Assembly: GCA_027068365.1 (NCBI GenBank)
Contig: JAMOTQ010000014.1
Coordinates: forward strand, 1 to 24,000
Length of the DNA: 24,000 nt
Origin: Methanocaldococcus sp.
Lineage (GTDB): Archaea > AGJL01 > Methanococci > Methanococcales > Methanocaldococcaceae
Direction of reading: 5' to 3'
The position numbers and the translations under genes are program-made. The notes below the pieces were generated by a model. That model was not told the origin of the DNA, ran no database searches, and saw nothing but the letters and a program-made list of their open reading frames with translations. Positions 36-22,541 of the stretch are shown here, one piece after another (position 1 is the first letter of the stretch; each line of letters opens with the position of its first letter).

Positions 36-124
36 CGGCGCAGGGGGGGAATCGAACCCCGAGGGCTCTCGCCCTCGACGGATCTGAAGTCCGCCCCGGG
101 CTACCAAGCCCGGTACCCCGCGCC
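36..124 (-). tRNA. tRNA-Sec (anticodon UCA), archaeal 9/4 fold
   Basis: The reverse complement reads GGCGCGGGG-TA-CCGGGCT-TGGT-AGCCCGG-G-GCGGAC..CTTCAGA..TCCGTC-GAGGGC-GAGA-GCCCTC-GGGG-TTCGATT-CCCC-CCCTGCGCC-G. This gives a 9-bp acceptor stem, a 7-bp D stem with 4-nt loop, a 6-bp anticodon stem, loop CU-UCA-GA, a long variable arm and a 4-bp T stem. It is strongly GC-rich against an AT-rich flank. Confidence 0.9.
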
Positions 125-3099: not shown

Positions 3100-3431
3100 T
3101 AAAAACTTTTTAAAACTTATCTTTTATTTTTAGGATTTTTATCAAATTTCTAAGGGTAGGGTATTTTAATGATTTTATTTATTTGGATTTATTAAATTAT
3201 AGTGAGTTTTAAAAGAGTTTGATTAATTATTCTTAGTTTGATATTTACTCAATAAATAACTTAGATTTTAGTAATTAAATGTTTTAAAGTTCTTTTTATA
3301 ATTGTAGGGAAAAGTTTAAATATTAGTGAGGGTATATAAATAAAAGTGGTTACCTACCCTTCGACAAAAATGGTATAGAAAAGCTTAAATATTAGAAGTG
3401 AATAAAATAACAACATCTCGAATGATTGCCC
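3100..3431 (+). promoter_or_regulatory. CRISPR leader 1 (long repeat); left boundary approximate
   Basis: Homologous to 9550-9880. The 5' block TTTTTATCAAATTTCTAAGGGTAG(G/A)GTATTTTAATGATTTTATTTATTT and a ~150-nt 3' block are nearly identical, while the middle has diverged. Contains TATATAAATA (3333-3342) and two copies of AAG(T/C)TTAAATATTAG (about 3312-3326 and 3381-3395). Ends directly at repeat 1. Confidence 0.85.
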
Positions 3432-4415
3432 GTTAAAATCAGACCGTTTCGGTATGGAAACAAGATTTTAAAGCTTGCTGATTTTGGTAATGTTAGTTTG
3501 TTAAAATCAGACCGTTTCGGTATGGAAACCCATTCTTGCAGGTATAATTATTATTGTTTTATAAACATAAATGGTTAAAATCAGACCGTTTCGGTATGGA
3601 AACTGAATTTTTGTTGAATTCTACTTATTTAGCTTTCCAATGTGTTAAAATCAGACCGTTTCGGTATGGAAACATGCAAAAGAAACTTACGAAGCTTAAA
3701 AAACAATTAAAAAGTTAAAATCAGACCGTTTCGGTATGGAAACGCAAAGAAAGTAGCAAAGGAAAAAGAACTGGTAGAATATTCGTTAAAATCAGACCGT
3801 TTCGGTATGGAAACTGAATTTTTGTTGAATTCTACTTATTTAGCTTTCCAATGTGTTAAAATCAGACCGTTTCGGTATGGAAACTACTGTCTTTTGGTTA
3901 TCACCCCCGTTATTTGTTGTGTTAAAATCAGACCGTTTCGGTATGGAAACTTAACTTTTATATTGAATACTTTCACTTGGAACTGTTGAAATGTTAAAAT
4001 CAGACCGTTTCGGTATGGAAACTACTGTCTTTTGGTTATCACCCCCGTTATTTGTTGTGTTAAAATCAGACCGTTTCGGTATGGAAACTTAACTTTTATA
4101 TTGAATACTTTCACTTGGAACTGTTGAAATGTTAAAATCAGACCGTTTCGGTATGGAAACTTTCTTAAAAACACTTCTCCTTCAGTTCTACTACGTTAAA
4201 ATCAGACCGTTTCGGTATGGAAACGAACTTTTTATTAAGCTTATTAAGTCATCTAAGTCATTGTTAAAATCAGACCGTTTCGGTATGGAAATATCTATTC
4301 TTAAAATTTTTTTCATTTTTCATATCTCCGTTAAAATCAGACCGTTTCGGTATGGAAATTATGCAGATATTTTCACAATCCTCAACATTAAAAATCTTAA
4401 CGTTAAAATCAGACC
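3432..4415 (+). CRISPR. CRISPR array 1: 14 full 30-nt repeats, 14 spacers (11 unique), plus a 14-nt start of a 15th repeat
   Basis: Repeat GTTAAAATCAGACCGTTTCGGTATGGAAAC. Repeat starts: 3432, 3500, 3574, 3644, 3714, 3785, 3855, 3921, 3993, 4059, 4131, 4195, 4263, 4330, and partial at 4402. Spacers are 34-44 nt. Repeats 13-14 end in T instead of C. Orientation follows from the upstream leader, the ATGGAAAY 3' handle and the degenerate distal end. Confidence 0.97.
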
Positions 4416-4656
4416 TCTTGGGGGTTAAGGTTTAGACATTAATTGGGGCTGAAAGCCCCAACTTAATGGATGTCGGGTATACACACCATAGAGGGGCTAT
4501 GCCCCTCTATTGGGATACTCCCCGTAATTTACACCTCCGAGCGTAAGCGAGGAGGTGTTAGGTTTTGATGAAACTTTTTCTAAAAGTTTCATAACAATAG
4601 GGCGGAGCCCTATGGAATTCAGACCTCTTGGGGGTTAAAGTTTAGACATTAATTGG
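4416..4656 (+). repeat. Array-1 terminal GC-rich hairpin module with a nested 112-bp insertion and a partial second copy
   Basis: 4416-4482 matches 11340-11406 at 60 of 67 positions by hand alignment. 4595-4618 corresponds to 11407-11432. 4483-4594 is extra sequence absent from the array-2 copy. TCAGACC occurs at 4409-4415 and 4619-4625. 4626-4656 repeats 4416-4446 with one mismatch. Confidence 0.8.
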
Positions 4657-4696
4657 AATAATCAAAATAAGTTGTTAAATAAGAAATAGTTATTTT

Positions 4697-5137
4697 TTAT
4701 GTTGTAGATTGGATAATCTTGGCTATTTTGTATGGGATTATTGCTAATATCCCCAATATTAAATATACATTTAAATTGCTAAAAATACTCCAATCTTCCC
4801 AATCCTCAAAACCCAACAGAAATCCCATGGCATTAGATATTAAAAGCAAAAAGGCAATAATTCCAATACCCAAGCCAACAATGGAAGCAGTAAATAAGTA
4901 AGAAACAGCTCTTATATCCTCACTTAAAGCTTTTTTTACCCCTAAAAAGTAAGTTATACCAATTGCCAATAAAGATAATCCACCAAATGCATCCCCTGCA
5001 AATAGTGGTAATTTGATTTCAAATCCCAGTATTGAGCAAATCCCAATTGTTATCTCAATAATTCCAGAAATTGTAAATAAAAGTCCAAATATTAAAGACA
5101 ATGTAGTTATTTTACCCTTTATATCCTTTATATCCAT
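4697..5137 (-). CDS. Small integral membrane protein, function unknown, last gene of the feo operon
   Basis: 146 aa with about four hydrophobic helices. GGTGA lies 6 nt upstream, and the start is 10 nt after the feoB stop. I recognise no family. Confidence 0.6.
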   Translation of the reverse strand: MDIKDIKGKITTLSLIFGLLFTISGIIEITIGICSILGFEIKLPLFAGDAFGGLSLLAIGITYFLGVKKALSEDIRAVSYLFTASIVGLGIGIIAFLLLISNAMGFLLGFEDWEDWSIFSNLNVYLILGILAIIPYKIAKIIQSTT

Positions 5138-5147
5138 AGGAAATCAC

Positions 5148-7157
5148 CTAAAATATTAAATTTCCAATAATTGTGATTGTCAAAGCTACTATGTATGCTA
5201 AAACCATCTCATAGGCAAGAGCAAATACTGCCCATTTCCAACCAATCTCTTGCCTTATAACCCCCAATGTTGCAATGCATGGGAGGTAGATTAAGGAGAA
5301 TGCCATAAATGCATAGGCAGAGACAGGAGTAAAGGCATTAACAATTATATTGGATAAGTTCTCTTCACCAACCCCATAAAGTATGGCTAAGCTTCCAACT
5401 ACTACCTCTTTGGCTATAACTCCAAATAACAGGGCTGAACATGCCTTCCAATCCCAACCCATTGGAGCAAATAAAGGAGCTAATGCTTTTCCAATAACTG
5501 CCGCCCATGAGTTTGATAACAACTCAGGATTTGTTAGAGCTTCTGCCCCTAAGTATCCGGAAGGTCCATAAACTGATAACAACCAAACCAGTATAACTCC
5601 AAATACAATTATAGTTCCTGCCTTTTTTAAAAAGTCATAAACCCTCTCCCAAGTATTTTTTAGAACTACCTTTAAATGTGGAATTTGATATGGAGGAAGT
5701 TCAACAATCAGATATGATGGAGATTCTTTGAATATAAACTTTCTAAATATCTTGGCTATAATTAAAGCTAAAACTACCCCAAGTGCATACATACTTAAAA
5801 CTACAAGCCCTTGATATGCTGAAAAAAATGCTCCGGCAAATAGGGCATAGATTGGCAACCTTGCAGAGCATGACATTAAAGGATTTATTAATATAGTTAA
5901 AATTCTATCTTTTTCATTTTCTATAGTTCTTGTAGCCATTATTGCAGGAACATTACAACCAAAACCCATAACTAATGGTATAATTGCCTTTCCTGGCAAA
6001 CCAAATTTGTTCATAAATCTATCTGCTATATATGGAATCCTTGCCATGTATCCGCTGTCCTCTAAGAATGATATTGCAAAGAATAGGAATGCCAATATTG
6101 GGAAAAACACTAAAACAGCCCCAACTCCTCTAATAATCCCATCAGCCAATAAAGAGGCAATAAATTCATTAGATATGGATGATTTTATAACATCCCCTAA
6201 CAATGAGAATATATAATCAATCATAGCTGAAAATGGAGCTGAAACATCAAATGTAAATTTAAATAACATCCATAAAAATGGAATTAACAGTAAAATTCCT
6301 ACTTTTTCGTCAGTTAAAACATCGTCAAGCATCTGAGTTGTTGTTAGCTTTCCAGATTTCTTTTTAACAACTTCTTTAACAATATTATCAATAACCTTAT
6401 AACGCTCTTCAATTATTCCCAAATCTGCTTCTCCATATTTTTTGGACAACTCTTCCCTTATACTATCTAAAACTGGATTTAATTCATTCCAAATTTTACT
6501 TTTTTTTATTATATCTTCAACATATTTATCATTTTCAAGTAATTTTATAGCCAAATACCTTAAATTATATTTCTTTAAATTTTCATCCTTTTGCAAGATT
6601 GAGATAATCTTTTTAATGTATGGTTCAAAATGTGGATACTTAATATTGTATTTTCTTTTATTTTTTACTTCCTCAGATATTGCCTTTTTTAAATCTTCAA
6701 TGCCAACTTTTTTAATGGCTGAAATTGGAACTACTCTAATCCCCAAAATTTTCTCTAATTTATCCACATCAATGTCTATCCCCAAAGTCCTGGCTAAATC
6801 CATTTTATTTAACGCTAATAATATATTAGCCCCCATTTCCATTAGTTGTAAGGTTAAATATAAATTTCTCTCCAAGGCAGTAGCATCAACAATATCAACA
6901 ACTAAGTCAGGTTTTTCATTTATTATATAATCCCTTGCAACAATTTCATCAATAGAATTGGCTGTTAAGCTATAAACTCCAGGTAAATCAACAACTTTAA
7001 ATTTTTTACCATTATATTCAAATTCCCCCTCTTTTTTTTCAACAGTTACGCCGGGCCAATTACCAATATAAACATTTTCTCCGGTTAGAGTATTAAATAA
7101 GGTAGATTTACCAACATTTGGATTGCCAATTAAGGCAATTTCATATCTATCGCTCAT
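5148..7157 (-). CDS. feoB: Ferrous iron transporter FeoB
   Basis: N-terminal G domain (GNPNVGKST, DLPG, NKMD) followed by a polytopic membrane domain. I place the start at ATG 7157 (MSDRYEIALIG), preceded by GAGGGAGA. The track start at 7175 is a TTG. MJ0566 from memory. Confidence 0.93.
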   Translation of the reverse strand: MSDRYEIALIGNPNVGKSTLFNTLTGENVYIGNWPGVTVEKKEGEFEYNGKKFKVVDLPGVYSLTANSIDEIVARDYIINEKPDLVVDIVDATALERNLYLTLQLMEMGANILLALNKMDLARTLGIDIDVDKLEKILGIRVVPISAIKKVGIEDLKKAISEEVKNKRKYNIKYPHFEPYIKKIISILQKDENLKKYNLRYLAIKLLENDKYVEDIIKKSKIWNELNPVLDSIREELSKKYGEADLGIIEERYKVIDNIVKEVVKKKSGKLTTTQMLDDVLTDEKVGILLLIPFLWMLFKFTFDVSAPFSAMIDYIFSLLGDVIKSSISNEFIASLLADGIIRGVGAVLVFFPILAFLFFAISFLEDSGYMARIPYIADRFMNKFGLPGKAIIPLVMGFGCNVPAIMATRTIENEKDRILTILINPLMSCSARLPIYALFAGAFFSAYQGLVVLSMYALGVVLALIIAKIFRKFIFKESPSYLIVELPPYQIPHLKVVLKNTWERVYDFLKKAGTIIVFGVILVWLLSVYGPSGYLGAEALTNPELLSNSWAAVIGKALAPLFAPMGWDWKACSALLFGVIAKEVVVGSLAILYGVGEENLSNIIVNAFTPVSAYAFMAFSLIYLPCIATLGVIRQEIGWKWAVFALAYEMVLAYIVALTITIIGNLIF

Positions 7158-9549: not shown

Positions 9550-9880
9550 CCATTTTAAAATTCGATATACTTCTTTTTAAGCTTTTTTATCAAATTTCTA
9601 AGGGTAGAGTATTTTAATGATTTTATTTATTTAGATGCGTTAAATTATTGGGATTTTTAAAAGATTTTAATTAAATGCTTTCAGTTGATAATTTCCACAA
9701 CAATTAATTTTTATTTTGAAAATTAGAGGTTTTAAAGTTCTTTTTGTAATTGTAGAGAAAAGTTTAAATATTTGTGAGGGTATATAAATAAAGGTAGTTA
9801 TCTACCCTTCGACAGAAATGGTATAGAAAAGCTTAAATATTAGAAGTGAATAAAATAACAATATCTCGAATAATTACCCT
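9550..9880 (+). promoter_or_regulatory. CRISPR leader 2 (long repeat); left boundary approximate
   Basis: Homolog of leader 1, with the same TATATAAATA (9781-9790) and AAGCTTAAATATTAG boxes at the same offsets from repeat 1. Confidence 0.85.
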
Positions 9881-11455
9881 GTTAAAATCAGACCGTTTCG
9901 GTATGGAAATTATACAAACAAAACTAATTACTAAAAACGAGTGGCAGTTAAAATCAGACCGTTTCGGTATGGAAATAATGATATGAAGGATTTTATGAAT
10001 GATGCTTTGAGTCAAATGCCTGTTAAAATCAGACCGTTTCGGTATGGAAATTACGTGGTTTTTAAGTTAGGATAATTGACTAATAAGTTAAAATCAGACC
10101 GTTTCGGTATGGAAATCTTTATTTTTTTATCTTCTTTAAGTTATTTTTTATCGTGTTAAAATCAGACCGTTTCGGTATGGAAATTGGTTTTTATTAGTTG
10201 ATTGTATAGTTCTTTTGCATCATTAGTTAAAATCAGACCGTTTCGGTATGGAAATTTGGAACATAAAAAATTAGTTTTAGATGCTTATAAGGAGTTAAAA
10301 TCAGACAGTTTCGGTATGGAAATTTATAAAATAATATCTTTTTTAATCACAAACTATTTTGAGTGTTAAAATCAGACCGTTTCGGTATGGAAATACTCTA
10401 ATTTTTGGAATTTGATACAATTGCCTCCAGATGTTAAAATCAGACCGTTTCGGTATGGAAATACTCACCGAACTAAAAGACCAATACATAACAGAATTAG
10501 GTTAAAATCAGACCGTTTCGGTATGGAAATTTTATAATTACATAAAAACTATGCTCGATATTCCATTCGTTAAAATCAGACCGTTTCGGTATGGAAATAC
10601 ATTAGAAGAAATTTGTGGATGTCAAGTTTGGGATGTTAAAATCAGACCGTTTCGGTATGGAAATTACTTGATAATGCAAAATCAACCAACTCCATAAAAC
10701 CGTTAAAATCAGACCGTTTCGGTATGGAAATTTTTGTAAAATCTTAGCTAATTTATTTTTACACATTTCGTTAAAATCAGACCGTTTCGGTATGGAAATA
10801 TCGGCATAGAATCCACAATCAAAGCAATACATTAGCCTCGAGTTAAAATCAGACCGTTTCGGTATGGAAATAATTTTCAAAATGGATAGGAAATTTAATC
10901 ATAAAATTTGTTAAAATCAGACCGTTTCGGTATGGAAATAAAATTTCAGAAGTTTTAGAACAATATGCAACTATTGAAGAGTTAAAATCAGACCGTTTCG
11001 GTATGGAAATTACTGGAAGGTTTATACAATGATAGTTACAGTATTATTATCTTTGTTAAAATCAGACCGTTTCGGTATGGAAATTAGTTTGTGGCAGAAT
11101 ACTTTAAATCTTGCGTTAATTGGTTAAAATCAGACCGTTTCGGTATGGAAATATAAATATTGATTATTTAATAAGAAATAATCAAGAAAGTTAAAATCAG
11201 ACCGTTTCGGTATGGAAATCACAAAATACTAAGGAAGAATATGAGGTTTTGAATGGAGTTAAAATCAGACCGTTTCGGTATGGAAATTAGCTTCCAATAC
11301 TGCCTGGTGAGCATCTTTCTTTAATGTTAAAATCAGACCTCTCGGAGGTTAAAACTTAGACATTAATTGGGGATGAAAGCCCCAACTTAATGGATGTGGG
11401 GTATACCAATAGGGGGTCTCCCCCTATGGAATTCAGACCGTTTCGGTATGGAAAT
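9881..11455 (+). CRISPR. CRISPR array 2: 21 full repeats, 21 unique spacers, plus a 22nd repeat split by a 93-bp module
   Basis: Repeat GTTAAAATCAGACCGTTTCGGTATGGAAAT. Repeat starts: 9881, 9947, 10022, 10087, 10155, 10226, 10294, 10365, 10433, 10501, 10569, 10635, 10702, 10770, 10842, 10910, 10981, 11055, 11123, 11190, 11258, and 11326 (split). Spacers are 35-45 nt. Repeat 7 carries C to A at 10307. No spacer is shared with array 1. Confidence 0.97.
11340..11432 (+). repeat. Array-2 terminal GC-rich two-hairpin module inside the last repeat
   Basis: Located between the repeat 5' part (11326-11339) and TCAGACC plus the repeat 3' part (11433-11455). Stems at 11361-11392 (13 bp with one bulge) and 11409-11427 (8 bp). 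Confidence 0.8.
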
Positions 11456-12780: not shown

Positions 12781-12832
12781 ATTTGTGGTGATTAATATGG
12801 ATTTTGATATAACTATTATTGGCTATATTGCC
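12781..12832 (+). pseudogene. Duplicated 5' fragment (SD, ATG and 12 codons) of the SemiSWEET gene
   Basis: 52 nt that are near-identical to 12911-12962 (two single-nucleotide indels and three substitutions by eye). The ATG at 12797 opens a 24-codon frame that runs into the hairpin element and stops at TGA 12869-12871. Confidence 0.7.
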
Positions 12833-12910
12833 ATAGGGCTTCGCCCTATTGGGATACCCAGGATGCGTTGATTAGCTAAAAGCTAATCAACGTCTCTTAG
12901 TAAAATCTAT
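12833..12910 (+). repeat. GC-rich palindromic hairpin element (head plus 12-bp-stem hairpin plus TAGTAAAATCT tail)
   Basis: ATAGGGC-TTCG-GCCCTAT (12833-12849), TGGGATACC, CGTTGATTAGCT-AAA-AGCTAATCAACG (12866-12892), tail TCTCTTAGTAAAATCTAT. Same family as 17768-17820, 21890-21970 and 4488-4520. Confidence 0.75.
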
Positions 12911-12926
12911 ATTTGGGTGATTAATA

Positions 12927-13208
12927 ATGGATTTTGATATAACTATTATTGGCTACATTGCTGGAACTTTAACAACGTTTGCATCTCTCCCTCAATTAAT
13001 AAAGTCATTGAAAGAGAAGGATATGAGCAACATATCATTAGCTTTTGTTATAACATTCACAACTGGACTAACACTCTGGCTAATATATGGGATATTAAAG
13101 AATGATTACCCCATAATAGTATTTAATATTTTGTCTTTAATGTTTTGGATTCCAATAACTTATTTAAAGGTTAGGGAGGAGATTGTAAGGAGGAAGAAAA
13201 TTTTATGA
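12927..13208 (+). CDS. SemiSWEET / PQ-loop (MtN3 family) three-helix membrane transporter
   Basis: 93 aa with three hydrophobic helices and an LPQ motif in the first helix (TTFASLPQLIKSL). GGTGA lies 6 nt upstream. Confidence 0.72.
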   Translation: MDFDITIIGYIAGTLTTFASLPQLIKSLKEKDMSNISLAFVITFTTGLTLWLIYGILKNDYPIIVFNILSLMFWIPITYLKVREEIVRRKKIL

Positions 13209-21695: not shown

Positions 21696-21889
21696 AGTTC
21701 CACGCAATATTTAAATATTCACATTAATTAGAAAAATTAGGAACAATTTAAACACTCTTACTGTTTAATTTGTTTGCCAATTATAAAAGAAAAATTTTGC
21801 AGTTAATTTTTTTTGTAGTTAGTTATTGCTATAATAATTAAAAATTAAAAAAAGCTCAAAATATCTGGTGCAAGGTCTGAGATTTAAAG

Positions 21890-21970
21890 CATAGGGCTTC
21901 GCCCTATTGCTATACCTCCAAAGGATGCATTGCCTCGCTAACGCTCGGCAATGCCTCTTCTAATTAGCTA
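21890..21970 (+). repeat. GC-rich hairpin element next to the tRNA-Leu 3' end
   Basis: ATAGGGC-TTCG-GCCCTAT (21890-21906), TGCTATACC, GCATTGCC-TCGCTAACGCTC-GGCAATGC (21926-21953), CTCTTCTAATTAGCTAT. Flanked by AAATATCTGGTGC at 21858-21870 and 21973-21985. Confidence 0.72.
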
Positions 21971-21979
21971 TCAAATATC

Positions 21980-22067
21980 TGGTGCGGGGGACGGGATTTG
22001 AACCCGCGAACCCCTACGGGACCAGACCCTCAATCTGGCGCCTTTGGCCAGGCTTGGCGACCCCCGC
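21980..22067 (-). tRNA. tRNA-Leu (anticodon GAG), CCA encoded
   Basis: The reverse complement reads GCGGGGG..GCCAAGCCTGGCCAAAGGCG-CCAGA-TTGAGGG-TCTGG-long variable arm-GCGGGTTCAAATCCCGT-CCCCCGC-A-CCA. A TTTATAAATA TATA box lies about 20 nt upstream on the same strand (22084-22093). Confidence 0.9.
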
Positions 22068-22253: not shown

Positions 22254-22364
22254 GCCGAGGTGGCTTAGCTGGTTATAGCGCCCGGCTCATACGGATATCC
22301 CAGCCCAACGGCTGGGTCCTGGGAAACCGGGAGGTCGAGGGTTCGAATCCCTCCCTCGGCACCA
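22254..22364 (+). tRNA. tRNA-Met (anticodon CAU, elongator type) with a 34-nt intron at the canonical 37/38 position, CCA encoded
   Basis: GCCGAGG acceptor pairing with CCTCGGC-A-CCA. Anticodon stem CCCGG/CCGGG, loop CU-CAU-A, then the intron 22292-22325, then A. T arm GAGGG-TTCGAAT-CCCTC. The intron holds a 7-bp hairpin CCCAGCC-CAAC-GGCTGGG. A CAU anticodon could alternatively be tRNA-Ile2. Confidence 0.85.
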
Positions 22365-22541
22365 TTTTATTCCCGGAGGTTTAAAATTTTTTGATGGAAC
22401 TTTTTCTAAAAGTATAGTTTCTTTGGAATCATTTTTTATTTTAGATATTATATTTATATATTTGGATGTTTAGATTGACTATTTTTAAATAACACTATTT
22501 TTAAAACATAAAATATGTCCAACAATTTTAGTGGTGAATTT

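Follow-up and report, generated by a model that had tools for sequence, protein, structure and literature searches.

The stretch of DNA analysed here (24,000 nucleotides, positions 1 to 24,000 of Methanocaldococcus sp. contig JAMOTQ010000014.1; hereafter the window) has a G+C content of 31-37% and carries a typical Methanocaldococcus set of housekeeping genes, encoding CdhD, FeoAB, an iron repressor, HemC, a diphthamide synthase, SecD and an MJ0565-family protein. Comparison of HemC identified M. bathoardescens and strains 16A, 28A and 10A as the nearest named relatives (87-89% identity), and metagenome contigs encode proteins that are identical or 99% identical to those of the window. For SecD, which adjoins array 2, no protein record was found. 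Two CRISPR arrays are present, each 3' of a conserved 300-nt leader (Table 1). Neither a transposase nor a cas gene was found within the window, and no usable cas gene lay beside the array ends that were compared. Two tRNA genes were also noted. One, at 37-124 (minus strand), encodes selenocysteine tRNA; the other, at 22254-22361, has the anticodon CAT and an anticodon loop interrupted by 36 nt that are probably an intron, and was detected by Rfam and missed by ARAGORN.

Table 1. Positions of the CRISPR arrays, their terminal modules and related hairpin elements in the window.
Feature	Position	Strand	Description and basis
Array 1 leader	3118..3417	+	85% identical to 9566-9865; aligns with M. 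bathoardescens and L013 leaders
Array 1	3432..4359	+	14 regular repeats GTTAAAATCAGACCGTTTCGGTATGGAAA(C/T), Rfam CRISPR-DR13
Split old repeat, left half (array 1)	4402..4424	+	GTTAAAATCAGACC+TCTTGGGGG, DR39-type stem; weak DR39 match 4402-4432
X, 5' part including hairpin 2 (ATTAATTGGGGCTGAAAGCCCCAACTTAAT)	4425..4482	+	BLAST, copy alignment, profile search
Nested 112-nt mosaic, three parts	4483..4594	+	Same piece at other array ends
Nested part 1	4486-4518		Family hairpin in opposite orientation, CCATAGAGGGG..CCCCTCTATTGGGATAC
Nested part 2	4531-4558		Hairpin ACACCTCCGAGCGTAAGCGAGGAGGTGT
Nested part 3	4567-4594		Hairpin GATGAAACTTTTTCTAAAAGTTTCATAA
X, 3' part	4595..4618	+	Hairpin 1 (CAATAGGGCGGAGCCCTATGG), then AAT; hairpin scan, copy alignment
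Second, decayed unit	4619..4659	+	TCAGACC+TCTTGGGGG, X truncated after TTAATTGG, then AAT; strain comparison
Array 2 leader	9566..9865	+	Leader comparison, 85% identical to 3118-3417
Array 2	9881..11287	+	21 regular repeats, DR13
Split repeat, left half (array 2)	11326..11348	+	GTTAAAATCAGACC+TCTCGGAGG
Simple X copy, without nesting	11349..11432	+	nhmmer E 2.4e-23 against X profile; identical in strain L017
Right partial repeat	11433..11455	+	TCAGACCGTTTCGGTATGGAAAT, DR13-type stem, without GTTAAAA
Family relative at PQ-loop gene start	12787..12961	+	Element 12832-12915; 45-nt duplication 12787-12831 / 12916-12961
Family relative by tRNA-Leu	21859..21985	+	Hairpins 21890-21916 and 21927-21954; 13-nt duplication including tRNA-Leu 3' end

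Both loci are CRISPR arrays, with 35 DR13 matches that reach the Rfam gathering score and with conserved leaders; the leader of array 1 is kept with that of array 2 and with the leaders of other Methanocaldococcus. The 14 spacer positions of array 1 hold 11 distinct spacers because of exact internal repeat-spacer duplications. These comprise a 100-nt block (3574-3673 = 3785-3884, spacing 211 nt) and a tandem duplication of 138 nt that spans two units (3854-3991 = 3992-4129). In addition, GGAAAC terminates repeats 1-12 of array 1, GGAAAT terminates its last 2 repeats and all repeats of array 2, and the array-2 repeat at 10294 carries a C>A change in its stem.

Beyond the regular repeats, both arrays run into a shared terminal module, whose core we refer to as element X. 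That the two array ends are truly homologous, as proposed in the initial annotation, was borne out: positions 4416-4482 and 11340-11406 are identical at 60 of 67 sites, and BLAST aligned 4402-4482 with 11326-11406 at 91.4% identity (E = 4e-25). The stretch said to restart the module in array 1 (4626-4656) matches 4416-4446 at 30 of 31 positions, and the direct repeat around the array-1 block is actually 38 nt long (4409-4446 and 4619-4656, 37 of 38 identical). A 38-nt target duplication was considered at this site and rejected, since 22 of these nucleotides belong to the beginning of an older X copy. The piece described as extra in array 1 (4483-4594) is exactly 112 nt long and is indeed a nested insertion of hairpin modules, one that recurs at array ends L026, L041 and L030/L034. 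Modules related to it also occur outside CRISPR, at L051:4980-5240, at L021:1-130 and in the window at 22389-22413, where a copy of its TTTTGATGRAACTTTTTCTAAAAGT module lies 3' of the tRNA gene with the putative intron.

The hairpins described for the two modules are present, the distal one reading ATAGGGCGGAGCCCTAT at 4597-4613 and ATAGGGGGTCTCCCCCTAT at 11409-11427, and the junction stem reading ACCTC/GGGGT in array 1 and ACCTC/GAGGT in array 2. In an alignment of 15 X copies, 95.5% of pair cells were paired; pairing is kept by two-sided change at pair 94-100, which is C-G in 10 copies and G-C in 5, and three hairpin-2 pairs are swapped in the M. lauensis copy. Folding prediction gave MFE z-scores of -7.4 for the array-1 end and -2.4 for the array-2 end. 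The predicted fold of the array-2 end consists of four independent local hairpins with no helix that joins the junctions, which argues against an archaeal bulge-helix-bulge intron, and the order of boxes is wrong for a C/D-box sRNA. In L018, L033, L038 and L048 the hairpin-2 loop is inverted (GGGGCTTTCAGCCCC instead of the usual GGGGCTGAAAGCCCC), a palindrome flip; such an inversion (CTGAAAG versus CTTTCAG) points to events at the DNA level.

The trailers had been offered as further evidence of common ancestry. Both do contain the string AAGTTGTTA, but when the 120-nt trailers were aligned locally with each other the result was no better than expected by chance, its score being reached by 191 of 1000 shuffles, and the string is therefore not evidence of homology.

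A separate origin was found for the junction hairpin (ACCTCTYGGRGGT), which had been counted as part of the module. Its stem is that of an older repeat class, Rfam CRISPR-DR39, to whose reverse-complemented consensus, ATTAAAATCAGACCTCTTGGAGGATGGAAAT, the left part of the module, GTTAAAATCAGACCTCTYGGRGG, shows a weak match. The array of M. bathoardescens consists of seven DR13 repeats and then a plain terminal repeat, GTTAAAATCAGACCTCTTAGAGGATGAAAAT, with a DR39 score above the gathering threshold, and entire DR39 arrays occur in the population of the window (L028 and L047). Since plain DR39 repeats exist, ACCTC...GRGGT is the stem of the repeat and lies outside the inserted module. The uninterrupted repeat is present in a sister species, and the M. 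bathoardescens and M. vulcanius arrays that were examined end without X. At the two window positions themselves, arrays are absent from M. bathoardescens, strains 10A and 16A and M. lauensis (L019-L021, L051). In the module, repeat-derived sequence is confined to the 23 nt at either end, the 77-nt core has non-CRISPR homologues, and the module as a whole is not an array repeat.

X is a non-coding, GC-rich element of ~77 nt with two hairpins, bounded by TTAGAC...CCCTATGG and containing core strings such as GCCCCAACTTAATGGATGT. A scan for the hairpin-2 pattern, which covered one genome per species and in which the window's own genome was not among the matches, returned a sole relevant match: contig L005, from a Methanocaldococcus metagenome-assembled genome (MAG), where the core lies within a methyltransferase gene with no CRISPR nearby. 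An nhmmer search with a profile built from the 15 copies found X in five genomes. Outside CRISPR, it recovered full-length homologues in the methyltransferase genes of L005 (E = 3e-22) and of M. vulcanius (L052:10631-10700, E = 3e-17), as well as in M. lauensis (L021:1-73, E = 1e-17) and strain 16A (L051:5090-5160, E = 2e-14), the last directly 3' of a tRNA gene. The homologues in M. lauensis and strain 16A lie within intergenic strings of hairpin modules, and these strings also hold relatives of the pieces found in the 112-nt nested segment. Because the X core occurs outside CRISPR, the module is not the CRISPR-specific terminal cassette that had been proposed but contains a dispersed element.

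An alignment of methyltransferase orthologues showed the insertion to be in frame and 38-50 aa long in the MAG, in M. vulcanius and in one JGI metagenome contig, and to be lacking from orthologues of 202-205 aa, including those of M. fervens and strain 16A. It is bordered on both sides by GTYAAAGA(T), and this X copy ends in CCTATGG(A), without the repeat stem or TCAGACC. Next to the methyltransferase gene, the helicase gene of M. vulcanius (L052 10761-13652) contains a LAGLIDADG intein; in L005, the methyltransferase and helicase genes are separated by a hairpin element, with the start of the helicase gene duplicated over ~30 nt. Searches of Rfam 15, by gathering score and by E-value, returned no family for X, the only match in 4300-4800 being to the CRISPR repeat and all others falling far below threshold. 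A tRNA/tmRNA scan found nothing at the module site, no match to the module was found among viral contigs, phage records or plasmid records, and simple X copies contain no T-runs.

On sequence comparison, X belongs to a family of palindromic mosaic elements that extends across Methanocaldococcus. The module, when read on the minus strand, shares the layout of two other window elements, at 12832-12915 and at about 21872-21972: a conserved hairpin, CCATAGGG..CCCTATTGG-ATACC, is followed by a variable second hairpin. The first of these is an insertion whose site is empty and single in strain 10A (L020). Its 45-nt duplication covers the ribosome-binding site and the first 12 codons of the PQ-loop gene, and a short ORF begins in the upstream copy of the gene start and continues into the element. 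The second stands beside a tRNA-Leu gene (21980-22067, minus strand). Duplications also border family members of strain 10A (about 22 nt) and of the MAG (about 30 nt). The direct target duplications that flank family members thus vary from 8 to 45 nt, an unusual property, and indicate that these elements insert at unrelated targets and leave long duplications of variable length. Two known modes of insertion were rejected: an IS200/IS605-type element, since the copy in the methyltransferase gene stops at the foot of its hairpin and the targets, which are unrelated, are duplicated, and spacer-like integration by Cas1-Cas2, since the duplications are not of repeat length.

We then compared array ends across the vent population, the species being present in vent metagenomes Ga0256836-8. 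A scan of metagenome contigs for the junction returned 29 contigs, which came from three related JGI samples and represent at least 12 distinct trailers. Its pattern required a DR39-type left half, such that arrays without X or with other junctions lay outside its reach, and every array end recovered in this way carried X or an X remnant. At all scanned ends, of the DR13 and DR39 classes alike, X was located in the last or second-to-last repeat, and no insertion was seen in internal repeats. Many of these ends also showed nested elements, deletions or tandem copies, one fresh and one decayed. The DR39 arrays read GTTA(AAATCAGACCTCTTGGAGG)-X-(AAATCAGACCTCTTGGAGG)ATGGAAAT, with two copies of AAATCAGACCTCTTGGAGG around X, a structure that appears to result from insertion into one repeat with a duplication of 16-19 nt. 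In L047, both halves bear the stem variant of their own array. At the end of window array 2 and a few others, the left half has a DR39 stem and the right half a DR13 stem, so that a simple target duplication would require that recombination subsequently brought in a DR13 repeat; the alternative is a model in which 7 nt, TCAGACC, were duplicated.

The end of array 1 differs among strains, as a check suggested by the initial annotation revealed. Strains L010 and L013 have only a truncated unit, which corresponds to 4402-4415 fused to the sequence from 4626 on. In strains L011 and L014, X is cut after GGGGCTGAAA, and L014 has the last spacer of the window; L027 has a full X copy upstream of a remnant of the L011/L014 type. 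The 210-nt block 4416-4625 is therefore polymorphic among strains, and what had been read as a restarted second copy is rather an older, decayed copy, the sole copy in L010 and L013. Fresh copies also lie upstream of decayed ones at L029/36 and L041, and at the array-1 locus X is truncated to 22-32 nt in several strains. A ~125-nt MITE with perfect 16-nt inverted ends (TAACCAATTATCAAAG...CTTTGATAATTGGTTA) was observed nested at CTTA^ATGG of X hairpin 2 in L029/L036, L030/L034, L023, L018 and L027, with further nested hairpin elements in L030/L034. Array 2 is identical in a second strain, L017, where it was read from the longer flank of the array-1 contig. In L018 (about 5240-5461, minus-strand reading), a deletion has removed array 2 along with ~85 nt from the end of its leader, and the leader remnant is joined directly to an X-bearing repeat.

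Strict co-inheritance of the module with its array was not supported. Across 11 arrays, divergence of X was uncoupled from divergence of the leader (Mantel r = 0.12, p about 0.25), and the ends look recombined. One array lineage, with 18 spacers in common, has either a truncated end or a full X copy, and a single last spacer occurs with two different trailers. CdhD lies upstream of array 1 in the window and in L013, and GlyA in L017, with synteny breaking exactly at the array. Many array pairs (L022-L050) were also seen to share only the spacer beside the X-bearing repeat, all other spacers being different, which shows strong conservation of the spacer at the trailer end. These observations are consistent with arrays recombining via their repeat halves and X, and X seems to be a recombination point between dispersed arrays, given that the array-1 neighbour varies by strain and identical oldest spacers lead into different ends (L040 versus L022/L024, and L017 versus L038/L048). 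Some of the contig joins across X could be assembly chimeras.

Elements known as MJRE are reportedly about 100 nt long and palindromic, mostly extragenic, with some in frame in protein genes. X shares with MJRE1-3 its genus and an in-frame copy in a gene (the methyltransferase), and is likewise a palindromic Methanocaldococcus element able to lie in frame in coding regions. The X-type family is probably of the kind described as MJRE. We know of no described link between MJRE and CRISPR repeats, and our literature search found neither an account of such an element at CRISPR ends nor an MJRE-CRISPR link. MJRE1-3 of M. jannaschii are the subject of Suyama, Lathe & Bork 2005 (FEBS Lett 579:5281), a work cited in PMC2229807 and PMC2996958.

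Like REP/BIME and the Rickettsia palindromic elements (RPE), X consists of short, GC-rich, non-coding hairpin units that are dispersed and arranged in mosaics, and like RPE it is able to sit in frame in genes. REP hairpins, however, are tagged at the foot with GTAG or CGTC (PMC3733652), whereas X has ATAG...CTAT in all copies. No RAYT-type gene was found in the window, flanking duplications of 8-45 nt are a feature of the X family and not of REP, and the host of X is archaeal; we therefore do not class X with REP/BIME. As with MITEs and IS elements inserted in CRISPR arrays, X is small and non-autonomous, interrupts a repeat and is associated with target duplication, and the X family has both target duplications and dispersed copies as expected of MITEs, albeit with duplications that are unusually long and variable. 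In contrast to MITEs, the ends of X (TTAGAC... and ...CCCTATGG) are not inverted copies of each other, its symmetry being internal and residing in two hairpins. Moreover, X occupies the same trailer-end repeat in many arrays of one population, whereas MITE and IS insertions in arrays are sporadic. Finally, X-bearing ends resemble degenerate terminal repeats in that the last repeat deviates, here and in M. bathoardescens by being of the DR39 class within DR13 arrays, but differ from them in that the deviation is mainly an insertion of 77 to >300 nt and a partial repeat duplication instead of point degeneration.

Such degeneration was nevertheless considered as an explanation of the whole, namely that there is no inserted element and the ends are scrambled repeats with low-complexity similarity. 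Terminal repeats are often degenerate, and parts of the junction do resemble repeat fragments (GGTTAAAAC, TATGGAAT). Conservation of about 77 nt across at least 12 arrays, non-CRISPR matches in four other genomes with E down to 3e-22 and the intact empty-site repeat in the sister species leave this explanation exceedingly improbable, and the 15-copy alignment and the profile search refute it. More serious is the possibility that the module works as an end-piece of the array transcript, which would end transcription, shield the last crRNA or block trailer-derived crRNA. The presence of X at all ends recovered from the population, the strong predicted structure and the conservation of its hairpins through two-sided and G-U-compatible changes could indicate such a function. 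Against it stand the arrays of M. bathoardescens and M. vulcanius that do without X, the strains in which X is cut to a short remnant at the same locus, the interruption of X by nested elements of 112-125 nt, the occurrence of the same element in a protein-coding gene and in intergenic mosaics, and the lack of T-runs in simple X and of an Rfam match. A role in the array transcript is disfavoured on these grounds, and we judge it quite unlikely.

We instead favour the view that the module is probably X, a selfish palindromic element lodged in an old trailer-end CRISPR repeat with a DR39 stem and remodelled by recombination between arrays. One or a few original insertions would have been spread and reshuffled among arrays by recombination via the repeat halves and X itself. 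Unequal crossing-over may then have generated tandem fresh-plus-decayed copies such as 4416-4659, microhomology deletions the truncated states, and additional small elements may have nested within X. Its persistence at the trailer end may be explained by a broken last repeat being cheap for the cell. Points against this view include that no transposase or other mobilising enzyme was found in the window, that X has no terminal inverted repeats and that the mixed DR39 and DR13 halves call for an additional recombination step. A more active element was also contemplated, in which X together with the flanking repeat stem (TCTYGGRGG...GGAAW) homes repeatedly to TCAGACC in CRISPR repeats with a 7-nt duplication and pushes older copies trailer-ward. 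Homing would account without extra steps for the DR13-type right halves (window array 2, L035, L039/42/44, L032), and is in keeping with the order of fresh and decayed copies at window array 1, L027, L029/36 and L041 and with the uncoupled divergence of X and leader. It is nonetheless unlikely in view of the methyltransferase copy, which lacks both stem and TCAGACC, of family members at unrelated targets, of the DR39 stem that M. bathoardescens has without X, of the two L047 halves with their array's own stem variant and of the absence of insertions from the internal repeats that were seen. It is likewise doubtful, to a similar degree, that X and its repeat-derived arms form a selfish element specialised on CRISPR repeats, which would take the repeat as its site of attachment or homology, re-enter the trailer-end repeat to build a decaying stack and act as the main crossover point for swapping array ends and adjacent chromosome segments among the many dispersed arrays of Methanocaldococcus; Cas6-processed RNA or the CRISPR integrase might take part in such a process.

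With X as a selfish element, the module is junk DNA that colonises and reshuffles CRISPR array ends, and not a new CRISPR component. An apparently dedicated CRISPR end-structure can hence be a hitch-hiking repeat element, which bears on array annotation and on the reading of terminal repeats. Here, a small palindromic element has gone to fixation at the trailer ends of what appear to be all the arrays in one archaeal population, and the states of the array ends provide sensitive strain markers. In M. vulcanius, the degenerate last repeat of the array on L052 (minus strand, about 950-2110 in plus-strand coordinates), ATTAAAATAGGTTTTTAGATGTTAAATTAAC, is loosely like a truncated X remnant, TTTAGACATTAATT, which may be due to chance. 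The same array displays a third stem variant, ATTAAAATCAGCACGGATCGTGATGGAAAC.
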